Virus record (IMG/VR): IMGVR_UViG_3300037851_000436
Location: 1-42,151 of that record
Origin: a virus
Lineage: Duplodnaviria > Caudoviricetes
Reading direction: 5' to 3' (one strand)
Length of the DNA stretch: 42,151 nt
Shown here: positions 1,472 to 42,151 of the stretch, one piece after another
Numbering within the stretch: position 1 is the stretch's first letter
How the letters are laid out: the number at the start of each line of letters is the position of its first letter
The notes under the pieces: model-generated
What the model was told of the DNA's origin: nothing
What the model saw: the letters and a program-made list of their open reading frames with translations, nothing else
Databases searched by the model: none
Translations under genes and position numbers: made by a program

Positions 1472-2644
1472 TTAATCAACCTCAATAAATGTGTCTCTAT
1501 CTTTAAACTCGTGTTTACCTTTTTTATGGAATAGCCATAAAACCTCGCCCATAAACTTATCTCTATTTGGTGGATATGCACACTCACCATCACTAAAAAT
1601 AATTAATAGGTCGTAAACCTCTATATCTTCACACTCAAAACAACAACTAAAATCAGTTCCACCCCTACCTTTAATATTAAATGATGAAATTTCATCATCT
1701 AAATTATAAGTACTTTGTATTTTTGTGTCAAATAAAGATATTTTTATCTTACAATGCTTGAACTCGTTAAATATTCCTCTAATCTCTGTAAGAAATATAT
1801 TTAACATCTCATTTGTAACGCTTCCGCTACAATCTATAAATATTCTTACTTTAACACTCTCTTTAATTGTTATTGGTAAGTAAATATTTGTAGCAGTACT
1901 ATTTTTATGTTTTCTATTATAACTATAATCACTTATATTATATCCTTGTATCTTATTATTTAATACTTCTCTCCAGTCTAACTTACTTATAGTTAGTGTA
2001 TTTATTATCTCTTCTAAAAATCCAGGTATATCTCCCTTAGATTTTTGGTATTCCGTAGCTTGTATTATCTTTTCTTTCCAAACTTTACTAATATCTTTAG
2101 TATCTCCTTGTATCTTCTCGTTCTTTTCTGTATCCATAAATTTATTATGGTCATCAAGATTATTATATTTATTTAGTTCTCTTTTTGTTTTTTGTGTTAA
2201 ATTAATAATCTCGTTATATATTTGTAACCAATTTTTAATATTTAAATCATTAATAGTTATACTATTATTTAAGTGTATATAATTAGAGTATGGAATGACT
2301 CCTCCTTTTGGTAACTCATAATTATCATCTTTAAGCGTTACTATTGCTTGATTTACTTTTATGTCCATAGCAATATTACATATAGTTTTATCATAAGTAT
2401 TAATATCTACAAATGTATGCATATATATAATATGTAATAACTCGTGTAATATTACCCCTCTAAGTTCTTTATTTGATAAACTTTCTAAAAATTCTTTATT
2501 ATAGGAACATACTCCGTTTCTATTAATTCCAATCGTTGGACAAGTATTATCTTCTTTAAATTTAACATATAAACTAATATATGAAAAGAAAGGATAATTA
2601 TATCCTATCTTCAATATATTTTGTTTAATTTTATCAAGTACCAT
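1472..2644 (-). CDS. HExxH metallopeptidase-like plus vWA domain protein (DUF2201-type MoxR partner)
   Basis: LHELLH, CNIAMDIKVN, MIDAS-like IDCSGS, FDT, GRGGTDF, FSDG. Confidence 0.9.
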   Translation of the reverse strand: MVLDKIKQNILKIGYNYPFFSYISLYVKFKEDNTCPTIGINRNGVCSYNKEFLESLSNKELRGVILHELLHIIYMHTFVDINTYDKTICNIAMDIKVNQAIVTLKDDNYELPKGGVIPYSNYIHLNNSITINDLNIKNWLQIYNEIINLTQKTKRELNKYNNLDDHNKFMDTEKNEKIQGDTKDISKVWKEKIIQATEYQKSKGDIPGFLEEIINTLTISKLDWREVLNNKIQGYNISDYSYNRKHKNSTATNIYLPITIKESVKVRIFIDCSGSVTNEMLNIFLTEIRGIFNEFKHCKIKISLFDTKIQSTYNLDDEISSFNIKGRGGTDFSCCFECEDIEVYDLLIIFSDGECAYPPNRDKFMGEVLWLFHKKGKHEFKDRDTFIEVD

Positions 2645-2646
2645 AT

Positions 2647-3738
2647 TTAATCACACATCCTTATTTTAATGGCTTCTTCTAGGTAACCACCTACTTTATC
2701 TCTTAATGCTTGTTCAATATTCTTTTGGTCGCCTATCTGTTTACTTACTCCATTTAAACCTTGAAATAACATAAGTCTAAATTCTGCTTCTAAACCTTCA
2801 AGTTTAAGAATAGTTCTAAGACTATCTTTATTATTCTTATAATGATTTATTAACGCACTTATAAAACTAAACTTCTCATCAATACTTAAACCTTCTATTG
2901 ATTGTTTACCTTCAAGTACTTTTTTAATATCCCATTTATTAGACATATTAATAAATGCAAATAATTCCATCATAACTCCCTCATTCAAAAATGATGCTAT
3001 AATACCTTTCTTAATATCTTCGTTAATTTCAGTATTAAGAACCTTATTAACTTTCTCCCATAATCTCGGACATAAAGCAGTTCTTCCATCCATTTTCTCG
3101 TCGTACATCCAAATACGTCCAGTATTATTTTTAAGATAATAAATAATTGCTGTATCAAACCCATTCTCAAAACACCATTCTAACCACCCATCAAAGTTCA
3201 TACATATTTGTAGATGTGCCATTCGTGTAAGTAATGGTACTTGCATTTTTGTAACTCTTGCTCCATCTTCTCTTCCTCTGTTACCTGCTAATACTACGCT
3301 ATATCCCTCAGGTAATCTATTACCACATAACTCTCTATCATTAACTATCTGATAGCAACTATTTTGTACGCTATCACTTGCTAGATTTATTTCATCAAAA
3401 AATAGCAACCCATAGCCACTTCTTGGAAACCATTGTGGAATAAACCAAATAGTCTCTTTATTTATTCTGTCTAAATCAGGAATACCTTTAATGTCGCTTG
3501 GGTCTAGTTGTGACAACCTCATATCAATTAATACATAATGTTTATCACTATCAATATCTTTCCAGTCCTCACTATAGATTAGCCCTAACTCTTGTGCCCT
3601 CTTTCTTGCTACTTGTCTTACTATTTGGGATTTACCAACACCAAACGCCCCAGTTATCATTACTGGCTCTTTAATCTTAATATATACCTCTAAATATTTA
3701 TTTAGTTCCTTTGTTGTAACTTCTCTAATATTGTTCAT
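2647..3738 (-). CDS. MoxR-like AAA+ ATPase
   Basis: Walker A GAFGVGKS, DMRLSQLDPSDIKGIP, Walker B LLFFDEIN, LAGN, PLLTRM, CPRLWE. Confidence 0.92.
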   Translation of the reverse strand: MNNIREVTTKELNKYLEVYIKIKEPVMITGAFGVGKSQIVRQVARKRAQELGLIYSEDWKDIDSDKHYVLIDMRLSQLDPSDIKGIPDLDRINKETIWFIPQWFPRSGYGLLFFDEINLASDSVQNSCYQIVNDRELCGNRLPEGYSVVLAGNRGREDGARVTKMQVPLLTRMAHLQICMNFDGWLEWCFENGFDTAIIYYLKNNTGRIWMYDEKMDGRTALCPRLWEKVNKVLNTEINEDIKKGIIASFLNEGVMMELFAFINMSNKWDIKKVLEGKQSIEGLSIDEKFSFISALINHYKNNKDSLRTILKLEGLEAEFRLMLFQGLNGVSKQIGDQKNIEQALRDKVGGYLEEAIKIRMCD

Positions 3739-4559
3739 TCTAATAAACCTCTTATTGTTGTATCTTCAATTACTTCTTTTAGTAATTGCCCATCTTTATT
3801 TAAATTAGTTACTTTGTCTAATTTATTCGTATCAAAATAATTAATATTACATTTAATGAATACTAAATTTGTTTTTAATTCTCCTCTATAACTACTTCTA
3901 TGATATAATCCTTTTCCTATTTTATATCTATATAAATTACACATATCCGGCTTTAATTCAGCAAAATAAATACTATTTTTAATCTTAATAGGTTTATTTT
4001 TCTCTAATACTATTTTTAAAAGAGTATTATTTTTTTGTTGTCTACATATAATATTTTCTTCTTTTTTTGTTATTGTACCAATTTCTTTTTTAAACAATAA
4101 ATTCCTATTACATCTATCCCCAAAAAATAATTTATTTGTTAAATTATATCTTTTTTGTAAATTTAATTTTTCTAATTCTAATAGTATATATCCAAAGTAA
4201 AAACCTTTAATAGTACTGTAAGTTATACATTGATTATTATTTTGTAAAAACTCGTAATTTATTCCATATACTGGGTCTATTATATAATATCTATTTCCAT
4301 CTCGGATATAATCAAATTTTCTTCCTTCTTTAAGAAAGATAATATTTAGTACGCTACATATGTCACGAAATACTGAATAATTACACTTTGATAAATCACA
4401 ATTAAATCTAATATTACTCAATTCCGCACTAATTCTTATGTCACCAATATCTTCAATTTTTATGATAAATATGTTTTTGTCATAAGTAACATATTTATCA
4501 TCATAATTATTATAATTATGCCACCTACTTAAAATCTTATTTTTATTTATTTTAATCAT
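3735..4559 (-). CDS. Hypothetical protein with shared C-terminal tail motif
   Basis: 274-aa ORF, ATGA overlaps on both sides; ends EVIEDTTIRGLLE. Confidence 0.8.
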   Translation of the reverse strand: MIKINKNKILSRWHNYNNYDDKYVTYDKNIFIIKIEDIGDIRISAELSNIRFNCDLSKCNYSVFRDICSVLNIIFLKEGRKFDYIRDGNRYYIIDPVYGINYEFLQNNNQCITYSTIKGFYFGYILLELEKLNLQKRYNLTNKLFFGDRCNRNLLFKKEIGTITKKEENIICRQQKNNTLLKIVLEKNKPIKIKNSIYFAELKPDMCNLYRYKIGKGLYHRSSYRGELKTNLVFIKCNINYFDTNKLDKVTNLNKDGQLLKEVIEDTTIRGLLE

Positions 4560-5987: not shown

Positions 5988-6137
5988 TTATTTTTTGTAT
6001 CTAAATATATTATAATCTTCTATATTATATTTCCTAATACACAAACTACAAACATATATCTCTTCAAAAATATTTTTATGTCGTAAACAATAATTATATT
6101 TTCTATTACAACAATCCTCACATTTATTATCAATCAT
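5988..6137 (-). CDS. Small CxxC..CxxC zinc-finger protein (49 aa, not in ORF track)
   Basis: MIDNKCEDCCNRKYNYCLRHKNIFEEIYVCSLCIRK...; GGAGGAG SD. Confidence 0.7.
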   Translation of the reverse strand: MIDNKCEDCCNRKYNYCLRHKNIFEEIYVCSLCIRKYNIEDYNIFRYKK

Positions 6138-6391: not shown

Positions 6392-6562
6392 TTAACACCG
6401 TTTTTTGATTAATTTTAATCTATTTTCGTTAATCCCATATTTCTTAATATACTTCTCAACTAATTCAGGAGTTGTAAGTAACTTAATTTCTGCACTAGCA
6501 GAGGATAATTTTTCTCCGTTCCAAACTTCTTGTGTTTGCTTCTCTTCTTTGTATTTTTTCAT
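6392..6562 (-). CDS. Hypothetical 56-aa protein
   Basis: MKKYKEEKQTQEVWNGEKL...KKRC; ATGA overlap with upstream ORF. Confidence 0.65.
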   Translation of the reverse strand: MKKYKEEKQTQEVWNGEKLSSASAEIKLLTTPELVEKYIKKYGINENRLKLIKKRC

Positions 6563-6569
6563 TTATTTT
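6541..6569. repeat. 29-bp direct repeat, copy 1
   Basis: tctcttctttgtattttttcatttatttt identical to 6809-6837. Confidence 0.9.
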
Positions 6570-6792
6570 TCCTATAGTAAAATTTACATTCTTCTTTCAA
6601 TTCGTTATTTAGAATCAAATTTTTAATCTTCTCAAGTTCTTGAATTTTTACTTCATTCTTGATTTTAATTGTATTTCTATCTGCTTCAGGAAATTTTTTA
6701 ATCTCTTTTAAAATTTTAAGTAATATCTTTTTCCTTAGATCAATATATACGATCAAATCTTTCTTTTCCATTAATTTATCTAGTATTGTCAT
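6559..6792 (-). CDS. Hypothetical basic protein lying between 29-bp direct repeats
   Basis: 77-aa ORF; its last codons and stop lie inside repeat copy 1. Confidence 0.7.
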   Translation of the reverse strand: MTILDKLMEKKDLIVYIDLRKKILLKILKEIKKFPEADRNTIKIKNEVKIQELEKIKNLILNNELKEECKFYYRKNK

Positions 6793-6808
6793 TTTTCCCT
6801 TAACCTCG

Positions 6809-6837
6809 TCTCTTCTTTGTATTTTTTCATTTATTTT
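6809..6837. repeat. 29-bp direct repeat, copy 2
   Basis: Identical to 6541-6569; encodes abortive MKKYKEETRLREK*. Confidence 0.9.
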
Positions 6838-8061: not shown

Positions 8062-8359
8062 TTTCAATCTCCTCAACCAATGATTTTATAATTGGGTTAT
8101 CTTTGTGTTTATTGAAAACTTTTGTATAATTATCAATCTCACTAACTAATAGCTTAGTAAATAAAACTTGTAATATAATCATATTGATAGTTCTACCTGC
8201 AGTATTTATAAGTTGTTCAGTATACTCTTTTCTATACATTCCTAAAATATTCCTTTTCTTCATAGTATTACATTTATCAATCTCATTATTGCAATTTTCA
8301 ATAAGTCCATATAAACCATCAGCCATAATTTTATACTCTTTTATATTAACCATTTTCAA
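7994..8359 (-). CDS. Hypothetical protein
   Basis: 121-aa ORF in operon. Confidence 0.7.
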   Translation of the reverse strand: MKMVNIKEYKIMADGLYGLIENCNNEIDKCNTMKKRNILGMYRKEYTEQLINTAGRTINMIILQVLFTKLLVSEIDNYTKVFNKHKDNPIIKSLVEEIENGESNNKKSEKTKSRKSTKNNK

Positions 8360-8621
8360 TTATCTCTATAATAGTATCTTTTACTTTATTCTCATCTTTC
8401 CATAATTTATTAGCTACCACATAACAATTCTCATCATTCAATACTAATGCTCTAGCCACTTTCAAAGTATCTTTTTGTAATCTCTCTCTGTCTATGATTA
8501 TATTTGCTTTTTCATCAATAGACAAATAACGAGCATAGAAAGTATTAACCAAAAGATTAACTGCTTGACCTTGCTTTACTGCAAAATCTCGCTTACTAAT
8601 TATTATTTTATCAGTTACCAT
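8346..8621 (-). CDS. Hypothetical protein
   Basis: 91-aa ORF; its first five codons (MVTDK) lie in the 98-bp repeat. Confidence 0.8.
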   Translation of the reverse strand: MVTDKIIISKRDFAVKQGQAVNLLVNTFYARYLSIDEKANIIIDRERLQKDTLKVARALVLNDENCYVVANKLWKDENKVKDTIIEIIENG

Positions 8622-8704
8622 TTTGGATAAATATGGTAATATCGCTTAGTATTTAATCTTTTGTTACTACTCCACAATCAACTAAATTTTGTTGCTCCAA
8701 ACCA
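8607..8704. repeat. 98-bp perfect direct repeat, copy 1
   Basis: Identical to 10149-10246. Confidence 0.97.
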
Positions 8705-8862
8705 ACCTTCTCTAAAGTTCTATTTAAATCATTATTTTTTAATTTTGGCTTTAAAGCATATCTCTTAACATTGAAATTTCTACGCAACATATCAAAATAA
8801 TTACGCTCTGACTCCCCCTCACAATAAATATTAAGACAAATCTTAACTTCCCTTGTACACAT
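8653..8862 (-). pseudogene. rloB: Truncated RloB-like protein fused in frame to the last 16 aa of the Cas4-like nuclease
   Basis: LNIYCEGESERNYF is the RloB N-terminal motif; follows an RloA-type ATPase; about 53 aa then GLEQQNLVDCGVVTKD identical to the Cas4 C-terminus. Confidence 0.8.
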
Positions 8863-10039
8863 TTGGAAAACCCCCCAATACTCCCTCCTTGTAGTATTCC
8901 CCATAATTTTTATTTATTTTTGAATTAGACTTAACAATATCATGTAAATTAACAATATTACTTACGGCATCTTCCTTTTCAATAATATTTATTTGGTCAC
9001 TCCTCAAACAATTCAAAATCTCGGGTTGGTGAGTCGTAAACAATAATTGAGAATTTACCTCTTCACCACTAAAATAATCAAGAACAAACTTTACAATCTC
9101 TATATTAAAAGAATTTTCAATTTCATCAAACAAAATAACTGAATCTTGATTCATCTTTAATAAATTATAAAACATTGCAATAAATTTTCTAGTTCCACTG
9201 GACTCCGCAAGAATAGAGACTTTAAATAACTCATTATTATGCTTATGAACTAATACTAAATCCTGTATTTCCTTTTCTAAAATTTTTTGTTCAATAGTCC
9301 CAGAATTTTCTCCATTCGGGATTAATGAAATATGTTTTACTTGAGTTTTCACAAGTTCCAAATCAACAATAGAAAAATCAGCAAAACATAGTTTTTCTAA
9401 TAATTTTTCTTTCAAAAACTCATCCTTCAAATAAGAAAAATCAATAGGCAAAGTAAAAACCGCATTTAGAGAATACAATTTAGTAAAAAACTCAAATACT
9501 GGTTTCAAAACTTGAGAATTCAATTGAACTGCCCTTGACAAAAATAAAGTTTGTGGAATTACACTATCCTCAACAGATTTTAACTCTTTTTCATATTTTT
9601 CATTTTTAAAAGAAAAGGTTTGTTTTTTTCTAAAAAATAGTTCTTTAGGTTTCTGAGTTTCATAAACAAAGGCATACTCCTCTACAACTTCAATCTCAGT
9701 ATAAGAAAAACCATAAATATATTTCTTTCCTTCCGAAATAAAAGTTATTTCAAATTTAATAGGACCAGGGTTTTTTGCAAAGTTATTATATCTAATTTTT
9801 GTGTTAATTATATGATTCGTAGAATTTAGAACCATCGCCTTCATAAAATCAAGACCTTCAAGCAAAGAAGTTTTACCTGAACCATTAACTCCAACCAATC
9901 CAACAACTTTTAATAATTCAAAAGTCTTTTTTTTATTAACAAATTTCATACCTAAATGCTCCTTTGATTTCTTTTCAAAATCCAAGCTTTGTTCTTCTTT
10001 GTAGGAATTATAATTTTTTAGTTTAAAATTCAAAATCAT
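8843..10039 (-). CDS. RloA-type ABC/AAA_21 ATPase (defence-associated)
   Basis: N-terminal FKLKNYNSYKEEQSLDF, Walker A GVNGSGKTS, TLFLS, signature ESSGT, Walker B ILFDEIE, QLLFTTHQ, C-terminal YKEGVLGGFP. Confidence 0.9.
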   Translation of the reverse strand: MILNFKLKNYNSYKEEQSLDFEKKSKEHLGMKFVNKKKTFELLKVVGLVGVNGSGKTSLLEGLDFMKAMVLNSTNHIINTKIRYNNFAKNPGPIKFEITFISEGKKYIYGFSYTEIEVVEEYAFVYETQKPKELFFRKKQTFSFKNEKYEKELKSVEDSVIPQTLFLSRAVQLNSQVLKPVFEFFTKLYSLNAVFTLPIDFSYLKDEFLKEKLLEKLCFADFSIVDLELVKTQVKHISLIPNGENSGTIEQKILEKEIQDLVLVHKHNNELFKVSILAESSGTRKFIAMFYNLLKMNQDSVILFDEIENSFNIEIVKFVLDYFSGEEVNSQLLFTTHQPEILNCLRSDQINIIEKEDAVSNIVNLHDIVKSNSKINKNYGEYYKEGVLGGFPNVYKGS

Positions 10040-10059
10040 AATACTTAGTATCTTTGTTT

Positions 10060-10075
10060 ATTTATAAACTTTCCG
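10060..10075 (-). promoter_or_regulatory. Archaeal-type BRE/TATA promoter of the captured ATPase
   Basis: CGGAAAG-TTTATAAA about 20 nt upstream of ATG 10039. Confidence 0.7.
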
Positions 10076-10148
10076 ATATTTTCAACTTTCCTCAAGAAAA
10101 ATCATAGAAAACTTAAAAATAAACGTAAAAATCTAGATTATTTTTGAA

Positions 10149-10246
10149 TTTATCAGTTACCATTTTGGATAAATATGGTAATATCGCTTAGTATTTAATC
10201 TTTTGTTACTACTCCACAATCAACTAAATTTTGTTGCTCCAAACCA
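10149..10246. repeat. 98-bp perfect direct repeat, copy 2
   Basis: Identical to 8607-8704; here the duplicated start gives only MVTDKFKK*. Confidence 0.97.
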
Positions 10247-10920
10247 GTAGTATCAAAACAATGTTTCCTGAACTCACAGAATGAACAAGGATAATATTCA
10301 ATGTTTGCACCTTTGATTTTGTCAGGCAAGTCACTTAACTGGATTTGAGCGTACAATTTCTCAAAATCTTTCAAAATTTCTTTAACGAAGGACTCATCAT
10401 ACTCAACCTCAAACTCCTTCAACTCCGAGGTGTTTTTATTCTCATACAATAATATTCCTTTCTTTATGCCTGTAAAGTGCAGATATAATTGTAATTGTCC
10501 CTCGTGTTCTAATTTTGGTCTCTTCAAGTAATCTGTACCGTGTATTCCATTCCAATCTTTTTGTGATTTTATCTCTATAATATATGGTTCATTATCAATT
10601 ATACAAATACTATCTACATAACCGTGAATAGGGATTCCTTTGTACTCAGTCTCAATTCTAAACTCGTTCTTTATTTGAATTTTCATCTCATCAAATATCT
10701 TCTGCCATCTCTGATGTATAGCATCACCTAAATCAAATATCCTAAGTGTTGTCTCGGGAGTGTTTATACTTTCTACTTTCTTCCAACTATAATATACTTT
10801 TCTAGGACATTTGAAAGCATCAGTAGGACTTAGTGCAGTCTTTTTGTATTCTTCATTCTCTTTCTTACTTTTCTCTCTCATATAAGAGTTTAGTTTTAAT
10901 ATCAATCTATCTTTTACCAT
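10195..10920 (-). CDS. cas4: Solo Cas4-like PD-(D/E)xK exonuclease with Fe-S cysteines
   Basis: SPT...CPRK, G..IH, GYVD, IIEIKS, QLQLY, C-terminal CSFCEFRKHC. Confidence 0.9.
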   Translation of the reverse strand: MVKDRLILKLNSYMREKSKKENEEYKKTALSPTDAFKCPRKVYYSWKKVESINTPETTLRIFDLGDAIHQRWQKIFDEMKIQIKNEFRIETEYKGIPIHGYVDSICIIDNEPYIIEIKSQKDWNGIHGTDYLKRPKLEHEGQLQLYLHFTGIKKGILLYENKNTSELKEFEVEYDESFVKEILKDFEKLYAQIQLSDLPDKIKGANIEYYPCSFCEFRKHCFDTTGLEQQNLVDCGVVTKD

Positions 10921-10922
10921 TT

Positions 10923-12161
10923 TTAATTTATATTATATTGAGGTATAGTTCTAGTTATATGTATTCCTAACATAGACATATATTCAAAATATCTTTCTAT
11001 GACAATATCACATAACTCATTATACTCTTCTTGATCTTTTGCATATGCTTTCAAAATAAGTCTAAAATTACTCAAGTGATGATTCATACGATTATTTTTA
11101 TCTCCTCCAAGTATCTCTTGACTATTCCAAATCCAATCCTCTTTCCCTTTAAGTTCCTCATAAAATCTTTCTTTATAATACATTAAACTCATTACCCAGT
11201 CACGCAAGTCATCTTTGTGTCTAAGATATACTTCTCTATCATTCTCTATATCAAACTGTTCCAAGTTAATCCTACCACTGAAATATAACGGAAGAAATCT
11301 CTCTTTTGTTGCTAGTGTATATAAATTATCAAAATATTCTCCTCGTTTATCTTTGGATATATTAGGAGGCATATAATAACTTAACTCGTTATATATGAAG
11401 CCTATACTTAGTTTACTCAAATCATAATTATCTTTTGTTTTATATGTAGTACTTGTAAGTGCATTATTAAGTAAATCAGTTCTACCATCACTTGCTCCTC
11501 TAAATACATACTCTAATGTCTGTTTCTTTGCTATATCTAAATCCATCCACTCATCAATCACTAACAAGTCTTGTCCATCAAACATAGTCATTAGTTTTGG
11601 GTCACTCTTTGGACAATATACCTTTGCTGTTCTTGTTAAGTTACTTAGTACTTCTATAACCCCGTTCTTACCAAATCCAGCACCAGTACACACTCTCCAA
11701 TTATATTTTCCAACAAAACTCCCTATAATCAATAACTTATACACTAAGAATTGCTTTGGTTCTGTATGTTCAACATTGAAATAATTATCAACCAACTCCC
11801 TAAAGGTAAGTTTTTTCTCTGCGGGTATCTTGAAAGACTTCAAACCAGTGTTGGTTGGTATCATATATATCGCATTTTGGTACGGAAATTGTTCCATAGT
11901 TGCTATTTTTAATGGTAACATATCTCTAATATCTGTATTTCCAAGTAATTCAGGTAATATTACTTTCTCTTTTCCAACATTAACTAACCAGCCCTTTAAC
12001 TCGTCGTAAACTGACTTACCTCTACTATCCTGCCCTACCTTTTTCTTGAAATATTTTCTTTCCTGTAAATCATCAATGTCAATTATATTCTTATATTTCT
12101 CATTTTTGAAGTGGGATATAACTGAATAAGACCACATTTTAGGGCTAAAATTCATCATCAC
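10923..12161 (-). CDS. AAA+ P-loop ATPase, probable replicative helicase (divergent MCM-like)
   Basis: GAGFGKN, LLVIDEW, IGFIYN, ATKERF arginine-finger-like motif; replication context. Confidence 0.6.
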   Translation of the reverse strand: MMMNFSPKMWSYSVISHFKNEKYKNIIDIDDLQERKYFKKKVGQDSRGKSVYDELKGWLVNVGKEKVILPELLGNTDIRDMLPLKIATMEQFPYQNAIYMIPTNTGLKSFKIPAEKKLTFRELVDNYFNVEHTEPKQFLVYKLLIIGSFVGKYNWRVCTGAGFGKNGVIEVLSNLTRTAKVYCPKSDPKLMTMFDGQDLLVIDEWMDLDIAKKQTLEYVFRGASDGRTDLLNNALTSTTYKTKDNYDLSKLSIGFIYNELSYYMPPNISKDKRGEYFDNLYTLATKERFLPLYFSGRINLEQFDIENDREVYLRHKDDLRDWVMSLMYYKERFYEELKGKEDWIWNSQEILGGDKNNRMNHHLSNFRLILKAYAKDQEEYNELCDIVIERYFEYMSMLGIHITRTIPQYNIN

Positions 12162-12369
12162 CCACCTCCAATGTATCTAGACTAGAAAAAGTCTTGTTTA
12201 AAGCAGTTTCCTTTCGTCTAAATGGCATATTCTTTACTGGCTCACTCGCCTTAATCTTACAAAATTGCTTAGATACTACGAATTTTCCCTCTTTTTTCTT
12301 CAAAGTTATACCTACAAACAACTCTTGACCATCAGGAAATATTGATTCAATATCAACAAATCCTGTCAT
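12145..12369 (-). CDS. Hypothetical protein
   Basis: 74-aa ORF in operon, GAGGAG SD. Confidence 0.7.
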   Translation of the reverse strand: MTGFVDIESIFPDGQELFVGITLKKKEGKFVVSKQFCKIKASEPVKNMPFRRKETALNKTFSSLDTLEVGDDEF

Positions 12370-12370
12370 C

Positions 12371-12844
12371 TTACAGCAACTCCTCTAAATCTACATCAAT
12401 CATCTCCGGGTCTTCATACTTCTTCTTAGTACTTTTACTAGTGTCAATGTTACTATCCAAGTAATTACCCTTATTTCGTTCTAAATAAAACTTCACTCCA
12501 TTAATCTGATGCTTAATTCCTTTGTTATCTACATATGAATACATACTAGACTTTGCTCTAACAAGTTCTCCATTTAGTACTTTACCTGCTACCAAGAAAT
12601 CATACATAGTCTTTGTAAGCGTCAAGAAACATTCCTCCCCATCAACCTTAATCAAACAACTATATGCCTGAAATGACCTCCTTTGTCCATTCTTTATATG
12701 GTCTACAGTTTTAGGTGTGAACAACTTACAAAACTCAAAATCTAATGACTTGTCTCCAAGTTTACTATTTCTATTGTCCAATAGCCTAATTATTCTCTTA
12801 CCCTTACTCCTACTCACAGTTATATCGTCTAAGTTAATCTTCAT
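12371..12844 (-). CDS. Putative single-stranded DNA-binding protein
   Basis: Beta-rich basic core with acidic C-terminal tail (EDPEMIDVDLEELL), next to helicase and nuclease. Confidence 0.45.
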   Translation of the reverse strand: MKINLDDITVSRSKGKRIIRLLDNRNSKLGDKSLDFEFCKLFTPKTVDHIKNGQRRSFQAYSCLIKVDGEECFLTLTKTMYDFLVAGKVLNGELVRAKSSMYSYVDNKGIKHQINGVKFYLERNKGNYLDSNIDTSKSTKKKYEDPEMIDVDLEELL

Positions 12845-13091
12845 TTTTTATGTCTTTAACCTCACATACTAACCCCAAATCTAAGTCTAGTTGATACCAG
12901 GTATTACTATTCTCCTCGTGAACCTCTATAAACTTCTCTGCTAATTTCACTTTTGGGTTCTTCTTGATTTGTTCGTGTATTTGTCTACATCGTTGCTTAT
13001 TTTCTATGTACCAAGAGTTATATTCCTCTTTAGTCCTGAAAAAGTCTCTTGCTTGTATTATTTCCATTTGGGTAAATATAGGTAATAGCAA
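12834..13091 (-). CDS. Hypothetical protein
   Basis: 85-aa ORF; start TTG 13091 or ATG 13067. Confidence 0.65.
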   Translation of the reverse strand: MLLPIFTQMEIIQARDFFRTKEEYNSWYIENKQRCRQIHEQIKKNPKVKLAEKFIEVHEENSNTWYQLDLDLGLVCEVKDIKNED

Positions 13092-13201
13092 TTAATATTA
13101 AATAATTATTGTTAACTTAATAGTAGTGAAAATTTGGGAATATAATACTACTAAATTTAGTAATATATTACTAGTAAATATAGAAGTAATATTTTATCTT
13201 T

Positions 13202-13508
13202 GTTTGGAAGCTCGCTTACGCTGTAAGCTCACTACCAAACCTATGGGGGAGTTTGGAGGGCTTAAGCCCCCCTATAGTCCCCCCGTAAATAGGGTCAATA
13301 GGAAATTTCTGCCTCTGTTATCATTTTGTATGTATTCCAACACACAATCAAACAGACATATGACCCCATTCCAAAACTCTAGTGAGTTTGTATGGGAATC
13401 ACCCCCGCCGTTCTTTCCGAGAATACCGCCGTCCTAAGAATACCTCAGTTGTAACGCCCGTAGAGTTCTTCATTGTTGATGCAATCTCCTCGAAACTCAG
13501 TCGTCTAT
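13202..13508 (-). ncRNA. Putative structured RNA (about 300 nt) with a K-turn
   Basis: TTTATAAA at 13532-13539 with GAAAG upstream on minus strand; at least six hairpins; K-turn at 13314-13356. Confidence 0.6.
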
Positions 13509-13622
13509 AACCAACTACAAGTATTCGCTTATTTATAAATCTTTCTAAAAATACAAGAAAAATTGGTGTTGTATCTGTTGGTAGTTATAAATTGTTAAAT
13601 ACTAATTGCTCTTATCTAATGT

Positions 13623-13889
13623 ATGTTTGAACAAAAAGACAAATGCATACAAATGGCGTTGTTATATCACAATATGTTACACGCAATGCCTAGTAAAGCC
13701 GAGAGACAAAAAATAAGAATGCTCAAACAACTCGCAAAAAATAAAAATTCTAGTTTGTGGGAAAAGACATATGCTTGTTCCAAAGAAGATTATGACAAGT
13801 ATATGAGTGACTGGATACATAGGAGCGTTATAGAGTTAATGCAATACATAAATAATTGGGAGACTGAAAATGGAAAGATTAGATATTGA
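13623..13889 (+). CDS. Hypothetical protein
   Basis: 88-aa ORF heading the plus-strand block. Confidence 0.75.
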   Translation: MFEQKDKCIQMALLYHNMLHAMPSKAERQKIRMLKQLAKNKNSSLWEKTYACSKEDYDKYMSDWIHRSVIELMQYINNWETENGKIRY

Positions 13890-14403
13890 AAATAAAGTTA
13901 ATGATGTTCTATTGAATATAATCGGATTTAATGATGACCAAATGGCTAAACTCAGGAATATGAAATATTATTCTTGTCCTGCTAGTACCAAATATCACGG
14001 TAACTTTGAAGGAGGACTTATAGCACACAGTTACAGAGTATATACTACTGCTCTAAAGATTAATGAAGCTCTAAAATTAGATTTGCCAATTAGAAGTATC
14101 GCAATAGCATCTTTATTTCATGACATAAATAAATTGTATGCATACAAGTATGATGGTAAGAAATATATCAAAGATGAAGAGATGCTTGGTGATGGTGACC
14201 TTAGTGTTAATATGCTAATTGCAAACTTCAAATTAGATTTGAATACTGGAGAATATTATGCAATAAGATACCATAATGTTTTTGAGGAAGTTTACAAGAC
14301 AGAAATATTCTCAAAATTATACAAGAATTTCAAGAAAGAATATTTATTATGTTGGCTCATACAAACAAGTGATATGTACAGTGCTACTGTATTGGAGATA
14401 TAA
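13870..14403 (+). CDS. HD-domain phosphohydrolase (YhaM-like HD subfamily)
   Basis: PASTKYHGNFEGGLIAHS, LFHDINK, AIRYH, QTSD. Confidence 0.9.
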   Translation: MERLDIENKVNDVLLNIIGFNDDQMAKLRNMKYYSCPASTKYHGNFEGGLIAHSYRVYTTALKINEALKLDLPIRSIAIASLFHDINKLYAYKYDGKKYIKDEEMLGDGDLSVNMLIANFKLDLNTGEYYAIRYHNVFEEVYKTEIFSKLYKNFKKEYLLCWLIQTSDMYSATVLEI

Positions 14404-14405
14404 AA

Positions 14406-14786
14406 ATGGAAGATAAAGATTATTTTATATTTACTGACATTGAACGAAAATTATTTTTATCTAATTTTGTAAAAGAAATGTATAATGAAGAAAAAGATAA
14501 ATATTTAAATATTATTTCAAAAAAATATATTAATAACTTTAGACATTTTGATTCATTCGTTAATTTAAAAGAAGATAAATGGTATTGTAGATTAATATTT
14601 TTGAAATTTCTTAAACATGATTTTGATACGTTATTAGTTAACTATAACTCATTTGAGAATTTTGTGAATACACAATATATATTAGATACACAAGAGATTA
14701 AGAATAAAAAAATTGAAATATTAAAAATTGTATATAATAGAGTTATTGAACATTTTGTAATAATAGATTTACTTGGAGAAGGGTGA
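14406..14786 (+). CDS. Hypothetical protein with shared C-terminal tail motif
   Basis: 126-aa ORF; ends RVIEHFVIIDLLGEG. Confidence 0.8.
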   Translation: MEDKDYFIFTDIERKLFLSNFVKEMYNEEKDKYLNIISKKYINNFRHFDSFVNLKEDKWYCRLIFLKFLKHDFDTLLVNYNSFENFVNTQYILDTQEIKNKKIEILKIVYNRVIEHFVIIDLLGEG

Positions 14787-14792
14787 TTAAAT

Positions 14793-15824
14793 ATGAACAT
14801 AGAACTAAAAAACTTTTATGACTTTCTTACACAAGGAAATACTGCTATTTATGGTACTGGATTACAAATTGGTAAAAGCACTCCACGAGTCTCCTTTGTC
14901 AATTCTTTTGAGGAATTAGAAAAATTAGTTCAGGGGGGTAAAATTACCCATATATCTTATAATCCTTACAAATCTTGTGATAATTTTAAGACAGAAAATT
15001 GTAAAGAAATAAATATGATTGGATTAGATATTGAGAGAACTGATAAAATAAAACCAGAAACAGTTGATAGATTAGTAGAATTAAATTGCTACATATTAGT
15101 ATTGACAGAGTTACTACATTTGAATGAATATATGTTACTTAGAAGTGGCAATGGATTTCACATGTATATTCCAATAACTCCAATAGAATTAAATGATACA
15201 AATAGAAATTTTTTAAGAGAAGGTTATAGAAATTTTATTAAAGGTATACATAATATCATAGCAAGTGACAAAAGAATAAAAGACAAATTTAAGTGTGATG
15301 ACAGATGTGATTTAGTTGGTATGCTTAGACTCCCGGGAGTAGTGAATCCAAGTGCTAATAGATTAGTAATTGTTGAAGATATAATTAGAACTAACACAGA
15401 AAAAAACACAGAAATACGAAAATGTCTACTAATTTCAGTAGAAAATGCTATAAAAGATATGAATTTCACTATCGGAAAGGTGCGACAACCAACATCGTTA
15501 CTACTTCCGAGTAATCCTGTGGAATTAAATTCACACCCTTTAGTGTTACTACTCATGGATGATACACTACCAAGAGTTAGTGGCTGGTATAGAACTGTTG
15601 TTTTTGCTCTCCAAACTATTGTTAGAGAATGTGGCTTTACTGATAAAGATGTTAGACAATTACAATATAGAATAAATAATAAATGGGATATGTGTGTTAA
15701 TTTAACAAAATGTTCCAAAGGAGATTTACATAGTGCATATTATGGTGCTATAAACTTTTGCAGGAAAAATGGATTTAACGAATATGAAAAACAATTATGT
15801 GGGTTGCTCACTAGTAAGATATAA
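14793..15824 (+). CDS. AEP-superfamily primase/primase-polymerase
   Basis: GLDIE (motif I), SGNGFHMY (motif II), D..GMLRLPG (motif III). Confidence 0.8.
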   Translation: MNIELKNFYDFLTQGNTAIYGTGLQIGKSTPRVSFVNSFEELEKLVQGGKITHISYNPYKSCDNFKTENCKEINMIGLDIERTDKIKPETVDRLVELNCYILVLTELLHLNEYMLLRSGNGFHMYIPITPIELNDTNRNFLREGYRNFIKGIHNIIASDKRIKDKFKCDDRCDLVGMLRLPGVVNPSANRLVIVEDIIRTNTEKNTEIRKCLLISVENAIKDMNFTIGKVRQPTSLLLPSNPVELNSHPLVLLLMDDTLPRVSGWYRTVVFALQTIVRECGFTDKDVRQLQYRINNKWDMCVNLTKCSKGDLHSAYYGAINFCRKNGFNEYEKQLCGLLTSKI

Positions 15825-16065
15825 CTATTACAAGATTAATAAGTTGAAGAAACTAGAACAACCGTATATAAAAGAATATAATGGTACTAAAGATAAAGTA
15901 AAGAAGAAAGAAATCTTTAAGATTATTGTTGAGTTTGAGAATAAGATATTAAATATACAGAATGAGAAGTATGAGAAATCTCATAGAAAGATTGAAAATG
16001 CGAATAGGAAAAAAGTATTTGAACGGAGGAAATTACACCGTGAACTCAAGAAACAAGGGAAGTAG
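15769..16065 (+). CDS. Hypothetical basic coiled-coil protein
   Basis: 98-aa ORF filling the gap between primase and resolvase. Confidence 0.6.
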   Translation: MDLTNMKNNYVGCSLVRYNYYKINKLKKLEQPYIKEYNGTKDKVKKKEIFKIIVEFENKILNIQNEKYEKSHRKIENANRKKVFERRKLHRELKKQGK

Positions 16066-16384
16066 AATTAGAAGATTATGTATTAATCTTTTAGAAGAAC
16101 AAGGATTTAGTGTTGCTGTTGTTGAGAGAACAGGAAGATTTATTCAGCAGAAAGATGCGTTTGGTGTTGGAGATTTACTTGCAATTAATAAGTATAGGGA
16201 TAAACCAGTACTAATACAAGTAACAACAAATAAACCACATACGCATTTATTATATAGTGAGTTCTCAAAGAATTATGCACACATTATAGATTTGTATCAA
16301 TATGTTTGGATTGATAGAAAAGGTTTTAAGATTTATCACTACTTGAAGTCTGGAAAATATGTTGTTACTCAAATAGAAAAATAA
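16040..16384 (+). CDS. hjc: Hjc-like Holliday junction resolvase
   Basis: GTG start with GGAGG SD; NSRNKG...L...GF.V, FGVGDLLAI, LIQV. Confidence 0.75.
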   Translation: MNSRNKGSRIRRLCINLLEEQGFSVAVVERTGRFIQQKDAFGVGDLLAINKYRDKPVLIQVTTNKPHTHLLYSEFSKNYAHIIDLYQYVWIDRKGFKIYHYLKSGKYVVTQIEK

Positions 16385-40954: not shown

Positions 40955-41087
40955 ACAGGATATCTATATGAGTTATATCTATCTCACAGAGGTAACTCCT
41001 CTATATCCTCAATCCGTAATTTTGAGCTATTTTGTAATAACTTATAAGTAACTACATGTTCCTACATATAAGTAGTGAAGAAGTGAG

Positions 41088-41224
41088 ATATATATATTAT
41101 ATATATATATATATATATATTATATATTATATATATTATATAAGATATATATTATATATATTATATATATGTTATATATGTGTTATATATATATATAATA
41201 TGGGATAGATATATATATATATAT
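41088..41224. repeat. (TA)n-rich low-complexity tract
   Basis: About 137 nt of interrupted TA dinucleotide repeats between convergent gene blocks. Confidence 0.9.
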
Positions 41225-41290
41225 GTTATGTAGGTTTTTGTACAGAATTCAGAACAGAGTGTATGTACTATGAGTGACAACAATAAAGAA

Positions 41291-41582: not shown

Positions 41583-41782
41583 TTTTCCTCCGCCACAATA
41601 ATGTACTCGAAAAATCCGTTGTAGTGTCTGGCTTCTTCTACCACGTATCTTCTATTATTTTTTTCAAAAACAAATCTTCCGTCGAAATTTTGACCTCGTT
41701 CTTCGAACCCTTCGGATAGCAGCGCAGAGATTGCTGAGCAAAAACGTTTGTTTTGTTTGGGGCGCACGACGATTCGCGTCAT
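41579..41782 (-). CDS. Hypothetical protein
   Basis: 67 aa, GGAGG SD, ATGA overlaps at both ends. Confidence 0.7.
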   Translation of the reverse strand: MTRIVVRPKQNKRFCSAISALLSEGFEERGQNFDGRFVFEKNNRRYVVEEARHYNGFFEYIIVAEEK

Positions 41783-42010
41783 TGTGCCGCCTCCCAGAAG
41801 AAGTATAGAGTATCCCCCTGCATCTTGTATTGTATTTTTTCTTCGGTTTTTTTCCCCACATTGTACCTCGTAAAATACCCTCTCAATGCCCGAGACATCG
41901 CACTCTCGCAGAAGTCGCCCTTCATATTCTCAACCATCCCAGCAATATATCTCTCCGCGAGTACTCGGTTGTTCTCGTCTGCTGTCGCCATTTTCTCGCT
42001 GATATCTTGA
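41779..42010 (-). CDS. 3' part of the junction-spanning 161-aa protein
   Basis: In frame with 254..1 after circularisation. Confidence 0.75.
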
Positions 42011-42151
42011 ATAGTGTGAACTTCTCCCGCACACATTATCTTCTTCAAGAAATCTCCAAAACTGAACCTGACCCGTGACGATGTCATTGCATCGAACTCT
42101 GCTCTTGACATTTTTGTGCGTCTGTTTCTTTCATTTTGACACATTTTTTGA
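42011..42151. repeat. Terminal overlap, right copy
   Basis: Matches 1-153 apart from 12 missing nt near the end. Confidence 0.95.

Follow-up and report, generated by a model that had tools for sequence, protein, structure and literature searches.

The closest described relatives of the locus reported here are AbiL/RloAB defence operons, in which an AbiLi/RloA ABC-type ATPase is encoded next to an RloB/AbiLii partner. The RloB-type toxin of C. algidicarnis is reported to be neutralised by its own AAA ATPase (PMC10440598), and the AbiLi of F. nucleatum is described as showing no antitoxicity towards its toxic AbiLii (PMC3985639). In the PARIS system, the ABC ATPase AriA is described as holding the TOPRIM nuclease AriB until a viral protein frees it, and AriB toxicity as requiring prior loading onto AriA (PMC11464382). 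A 2026 review does not settle whether AbiL acts like PARIS, as a toxin-antitoxin pair (PMC13064643). Viruses are also reported to bear the antidote half of host toxin-antitoxin defences, as orphan or hijacked antitoxins: PhiTE-F acquired ToxI from a host locus by recombination (PMC3475682), and the NADAR protein AdfN reverses DarT1 (PMC11825919). In T4-type phages, direct repeats flanking accessory genes are described as allowing loss, circles and amplification, by repeat-mediated shuffling via PeSL cassettes (PMC2839356) and by amplification of dmd-tifA (PMC9391042).

We analyzed a virus contig from IMG/VR with a length of 42151 bp, the whole of which is referred to here as the window; the analysis as a whole rests on this one virus genome from one sample. 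The contig contains matches to portal, terminase, major head, tape-measure and tail-fibre proteins in Pfam and PHROGs, and no lysogeny gene was seen in the ORFs scanned with these collections. The contig ends (1-153 and 42011-42151) repeat each other over about 150 bp, save for a 12-nt difference inside ORF 41779-42144. Because the ends overlap, the genome is probably circular and near complete, and the 12-nt difference probably represents two alleles of the circular genome. The CheckV completeness estimate was 58% despite the overlapping ends. No close viral relative was found in IMG/VR using as queries Cas4, the ATPase, a Cas4 alignment, one Cas4 homologue, a 412-aa protein, an RloB alignment and a 77-aa ORF; the alignment scan covered 27 of 64 parts and returned relatives at 27-35% only, and the scanned collection may exclude records nearly identical to this one. 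The terminase had no match among named phages. Judging from its genes, this is likely a tailed virus infecting DPANN archaea, a host suggested by the DPANN type of the donor DNA described below together with promoter and ribosome-binding motifs of archaeal type in the viral genome.

We found that an exact 98-bp repeat occurs at 8607-8704 (copy A) and at 10149-10246 (copy B, upstream in the reading direction), with 1444 bp (8705-10148) in between. The longest exact repeats expected by chance were 15-20 bp in 20 shuffles. A 16-bp match at 6080/9033 is no longer than shuffling gives. Each copy comprises one base plus the last 16 codons and the stop of cas4, a 31-nt spacer, and the first five codons of the ORF at 8346-8621, here called gene X. 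All genes of the locus lie on the minus strand, and in the reading direction the order is cas4, spacer, five gene X codons, insert, cas4 tail, spacer and whole gene X. The gene encoding the Cas4-like nuclease (10195-10920; 241 aa; PADLOC Cas4 1e-16, PHROG 1706, TIGR00372) is intact, with its last 16 codons inside copy B. Gene X (8346-8621; 91 aa) is whole despite the duplication, its true start being in copy A; it had no match in Pfam, PHROG or PADLOC and no usable Atlas match. The second gene X start, in copy B, reads on into the insert as a 16-codon mini-ORF (10113-10163).

The insert carries a whole gene for a 398-aa AbiLi/RloA ABC-type ATPase (8843-10039; PADLOC AbiLi 2e-61). The protein passes the Pfam AAA_21 cut-off and its ABC motifs are intact, with Walker A at residue 50, the signature at 279, Walker B at 302 and the H-loop at 335. 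Among 168 homologues, the top 26 were 60-66% identical, and the three of these with a taxon name belong to Aenigmarchaeota, Nanoarchaeota and Woesearchaeota. In a tree of 41 rows, the viral ATPase fell in a 34-row clade with DPANN-named proteins (support 95/90) on a branch of ordinary length (0.27). It departs from the family at 9 of 152 conserved columns, mostly by conservative changes, and its codon usage is barely foreign to the virus (rank 4 of 28). An alignment search of metagenomes with the ATPase gave no match, and a scan of genomes returned a single CPR locus, described below.

We found five metagenome loci with such operons, of which three (L087, L088 and L089), with the operon intact in cellular contigs, are close to the viral genes. 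In these three, the ATPase is followed by a whole RloB of 161-162 aa that overlaps the last codons of the ATPase, as in the virus; in the two more distant loci, too, translation shows a full-length partner. A BRE/TATA-like promoter, CGGAAAGTTTATAAA, lies at 10061-10075 on the minus strand of the viral insert and was brought with it. Its TATA element starts 29 nt before the ATPase ATG, and the two close loci with upstream DNA (L087 and L089) have the same motif at the matching distance of 30 nt. The original prediction of an exact duplication around a foreign insert with its own promoter was borne out: what was inserted is part of an AbiL/RloAB operon of DPANN type. We also accept its reading of the event as recent. 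The duplication and insert are real, and the capture is recent. As separate observations on the cellular loci, the intact operon of L089 is adjoined (2534-4123) by a protein that by eye resembles DUF262/HNH restriction-type defence proteins, as in a defence island. In a CPR bacterium MAG (L002, 8001-9610), an ATPase of 45% identity is followed by a broken gene that by eye is PIN-like, not RloB. Partner swap and toxin decay are thus not confined to viruses but take place in cells as well.

The second gene of the insert is broken. The viral RloB/AbiLii (8653-8862) starts at 8862, matches 52 of about 161 residues, and then continues through one junction codon into the duplicated cas4 tail, where copy A supplies 16 cas4 codons and the cas4 stop. 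In RloB proteins, both the TOPRIM glutamate and a DxD motif have functional roles. The viral RloB retains the glutamate and has lost the DxD, since D69-x-D71 of the L087 RloB lies beyond the break. It scored 16.9 bits against the Pfam RloB cut-off of 31.5, which the intact homologues (161-162 aa) pass. A HMMER search for a longer RloB gave four matches, and no full-length RloB/AbiLii lies directly downstream of the viral ATPase. Because RloB is cut at residue 52, without the DxD, the locus is half a system and does not belong to AbiL. It shares with AbiL/RloAB the ATPase family, the gene order, the overlapping start and the RloB N-terminus. The antitoxin homologue is whole and the cognate toxin is dead in the virus genome, as would be expected of an orphan antitoxin.

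Whole AbiL/RloAB operons are carried by other phages. Seven phage matches were found; in all four records examined the partner gene was full-length, while two of the others are same-size sister records and one is a partial match. The broken state in this virus is unusual, because the four examined phage copies are whole. These copies raise an alternative, in which the virus first took the whole AbiL operon as defence cargo inside a longer duplication, as happens in temperate phages, and then lost most of RloB, along with part of the duplicate, by deletion. This history requires one extra event within a span too brief for the 98 bp to have changed, the longer duplicate left no trace, and no integrase or lysogeny gene was seen with Pfam and PHROGs. 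We regard it as improbable. Separately, we observed two other DPANN-type RloB forms, P0135 and P0136, that end or switch near residue 58-62: one, on a contig of 742 bp, continues as a fusion with a NIF-phosphatase-like C-terminus, and the other is 62 aa long on a 1867-bp contig. These forms may be chimeras, contig ends or further truncations.

We then asked whether the insert belongs to the virus assembly. One public run (run X1, possibly the source sample) holds the stretch, and we used independently assembled Logan contigs from 75% of that run. Two insert contigs, 8675-9376 (depth 10.1) and 9353-10178 (depth 8.5), each extend 30 bases into the repeat. The flanks have depths of 8.58 on the left and 9.64 on the right, where the contig begins at 10217. 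The 98-bp repeat appears as a single record with a depth of 21.2, compared with 8.5-10.1 elsewhere. Contig depth is a rough measure, and by it the insert/flank ratio is 1.015 and the repeat/flank ratio 2.33, with a rough error on insert depth of 10-18% for assumed read lengths. The contig breaks match the prediction for a two-copy repeat, and insert coverage follows the virus (ratio ~1.0), not a host contig. Among eight run X1 records at 80% likeness, none was a continuation of the donor or a related copy; short loose-end matches in the run (21-38 bases) were treated as chance.

The same data bear on an assembly artefact, either an empty-site virus coexisting with a 1542-bp circle or a chimera formed in the library. 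Logan contigs are built with k=31, which cannot span the 98-bp repeat or separate an integrated copy from an empty site plus a circle, and 8345-8606 is uncovered in the 75% of the run, so that the left virus-to-repeat junction is unseen there. Against an artefact, both insert junctions lie inside unbranched contigs at depths of 8.5-10.1, the insert is as deep as its flanks, it has no replication gene, and the two assemblies are identical base for base wherever covered. We consider an artefact quite unlikely. The insert had further been predicted to be an excisable or amplifiable cassette. The 98-bp homology would permit its loss or tandem amplification by homologous recombination, and this part is plausible; no such event was seen, however, and the insert depth is ~1.0x that of the flanks.

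The insert probably entered through two virus-donor joins, which would yield the present locus in one step. At the first, viral sequence would break off five codons inside gene X and be followed by donor sequence from about 110 bp above the ATPase; at the second, donor sequence at RloB codon 53 would connect back to the virus, 16 codons ahead of the cas4 stop. The 98-bp duplication would arise because the re-entry falls 98 bp upstream of the exit point. The opposite offset would delete parts of both flanking genes, and therefore viability favours the duplication geometry. No target-site-duplicating enzyme is needed for the 98-bp duplication. We take two offset non-homologous joins as the most likely source of the duplication, which left both flanking genes whole.

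We detected a second duplication-flanked unit at 6541-6837 (minus strand), bounded by exact 29-bp repeats at 6541-6569 and 6809-6837. The repeats consist of the leader and first seven codons of the gene at 6392-6562 and enclose a 77-aa ORF (6559-6792), which terminates inside the downstream copy. The best score in 30 local shuffles was 19, compared with 29 bp here, and the unit sits inside one Logan contig, 1.8 kb from the 98-bp-flanked insert. No relative of the 77-aa ORF was found in Pfam, NCBIfam or IMG/VR. The 98-bp and 29-bp repeats share their geometry, but neither length nor sequence.

Two duplication-flanked units of the same layout within 4 kb, an adjacent Cas4-like gene and an SSB-like lead (ORF 12371-12844; Atlas 0.90, TM up to 0.52) could point to a dedicated capture system, in which the Cas4-like nuclease, SSB and resolvase, or an inverted-repeat site, insert host DNA at gene junctions and produce excisable cassettes. 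Cas4 is described as common in archaeal viruses, with its function unknown (PMC5704561). The original prediction had proposed a possible involvement of Cas4, SSB and resolvase in the capture. This was not supported: direct repeats of at least 30 bp at a spacing of 200-6000 bp were found in 0 of 83 fetched loci with Cas4 relatives, which are distant and partly redundant (27-37% identity for the 80 that match). The 'resolvase' ORF (15962-16384) is Holliday-junction-resolvase-like by eye only, with no Pfam, PHROG or NCBIfam match. The inverted repeat of the original prediction, TTACCAT..ATGGTAA, does exist as a 7-bp inverted repeat across the gene X start codon (8615-8639, and also at 10157-10181), but a role in the capture was not supported. 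There are 18 such repeats in the 42 kb, its folding was unremarkable (z = -0.6 as RNA and -1.0 as DNA), and we rejected it as a recombination site because it is not significant and the crossovers fall outside it. A capture system of this kind would also have severed its second cargo gene mid-frame. A dedicated site or enzyme was rejected as the leading reading because the repeats differ, the inverted repeat is not significant and none of the 83 Cas4 loci has such repeats; we give it very little credence.

As predicted, no integrase or transposase was matched in the scanned ORFs (71 of 130 by Pfam and 50 by PHROGs), the remaining ORFs being mostly small or antisense. An insertion sequence or transposon was rejected as a candidate on the lack of a transposase match, the 98-bp length of the duplication, and the finding that none of the listed inverted repeats pairs the insert ends. 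An integrase-driven element (attL/attR or an integron cassette) was also rejected: no integrase was matched, the crossovers lie outside the 7-bp inverted repeat and the second cargo gene is broken.

To consider what the captured gene might do, we modelled a complex of two viral ATPase chains with the L087 RloB. The model scored 0.61, compared with 0.00 for the best of three controls. Of 157 solved pairs, 116 reach this mark, compared with 2 of 215 mismatched ones, though these counts apply only approximately to the present job. Contacts agreed to at least 92% between runs and the partner pLDDT was at least 77. The modelled contact is mostly via the conserved C-terminal tail of the ATPase (374-393). 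Of the 31 interface residues in the model, 18 fall within the first 53 positions of the 69-aa viral toxin stub. The model shows a retained surface, not function, because natural family partners were paired. A sequence search of the PDB gave no RloB and no like complex, only a weak AriA match (E 1e-4, short stretch); intact RloB on its own was modelled by AlphaFold with a pLDDT of 49.6, too low for comparison by fold.

We tentatively favour, at somewhat short of even odds, the reading that the viral ATPase binds RloB and acts as an orphan antitoxin against host AbiL, after a recent capture from the host by two offset non-homologous joins. The captured promoter would allow the ATPase to be expressed during infection, and any excess of the protein would then either sequester host RloB or titrate out the trigger made by the virus. 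A surplus of ATPase need not protect, however, because AriB toxicity depends on AriA loading.

The same accidental capture could instead have left a neutral passenger, tolerated because the flanking genes are intact and the toxin is dead, sampled as one recent clone, and due to be deleted via the repeats. The perfect repeats leave little time for selection, no second virus carrying the same ATPase clade was found in the IMG/VR scans, the same geometry around the unrelated 77-aa ORF suggests a general accident route, and the F. nucleatum case indicates, as reported, that antitoxicity of AbiLi is not universal (PMC3985639). On the other side, the captured content is exactly one promoter with one complete gene, its depth is ~1.0x that of the flanks though it is deletable (within the rough error above), and the RloB-binding surface is predicted to be intact. 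The form of the piece was also compared with chance: when a 1444-bp piece was placed at random, 208 of 2548 placements contained the promoter and ATPase only. A piece of this size is too small for the whole operon, and if toxic or useless pieces are weeded out, this form could remain without conferring any benefit. We regard a neutral passenger as a serious possibility, if below an even chance, and nearly as likely as an orphan antitoxin. A bolder version of the orphan-antitoxin reading holds that the virus was caught just after stealing the AbiL ATPase antitoxin of its host and discarding the toxin, that an orphan ABC-ATPase sponge directed at ATPase-TOPRIM systems forms a new class of counter-defence, and that offset joins duplicating a gene junction are a recurring route yielding a tunable, excisable cassette. 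We find this version a real possibility, though less likely than not.

In an orphan-antitoxin role, the ATPase would resemble ToxI and AdfN in that a virus bears the antidote half of a host defence. As described, ToxI is an RNA antitoxin and AdfN an enzyme, both from bacterial phages and with demonstrated function, whereas here a sensor-type ABC ATPase of a likely archaeal virus has a predicted one; unlike in those reported cases, the toxin stub and the junctions are still visible. PARIS, as described, is the only solved relative found, with an ABC ATPase that retains its TOPRIM nuclease until the virus triggers release, but AriA belongs to a distant family and AriB needs loading onto it. The repeats resemble those reported from T4-type phages in flanking accessory genes. 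They differ in that each is a unique duplicate of a gene junction, apparently made by the capture, rather than a shared cassette or a microhomology of 6-10 bp, and no amplification was seen. We found no report of a virus-borne orphan AbiLi in the open-access literature.

The origins of viral counter-defence genes are usually inferred long afterwards, and here the promoter, breakpoints and toxin stub are still present. If the ATPase neutralises RloB, the known range of orphan antitoxins would widen to include ATPase-TOPRIM defences as well as DPANN archaea, and the locus would offer a direct test of AbiL as a PARIS-like toxin-antitoxin pair. If it is neutral, the locus is a clean record of how an extra gene enters a virus without an integrase. 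Its value lies in a counter-defence idea that can be put to the test and in a capture geometry that is repeated in the genome.

Other regions of the window were also noted. A replication block at 10923-16384 contains a P-loop helicase-like protein of 412 aa, an SSB-like protein of 157 aa, an HD protein, a primase-like protein of 343 aa and a Holliday-junction-resolvase-like protein of 140 aa, the helicase, primase and resolvase labels being assigned by eye without an HMM match. A MoxR-like AAA ATPase adjoins a DUF2201 vWA/metallopeptidase protein at 1472-3738. A long TA-rich low-complexity tract with inverted repeats follows the terminase gene at 41060-41240 and is a possible origin or packaging region.
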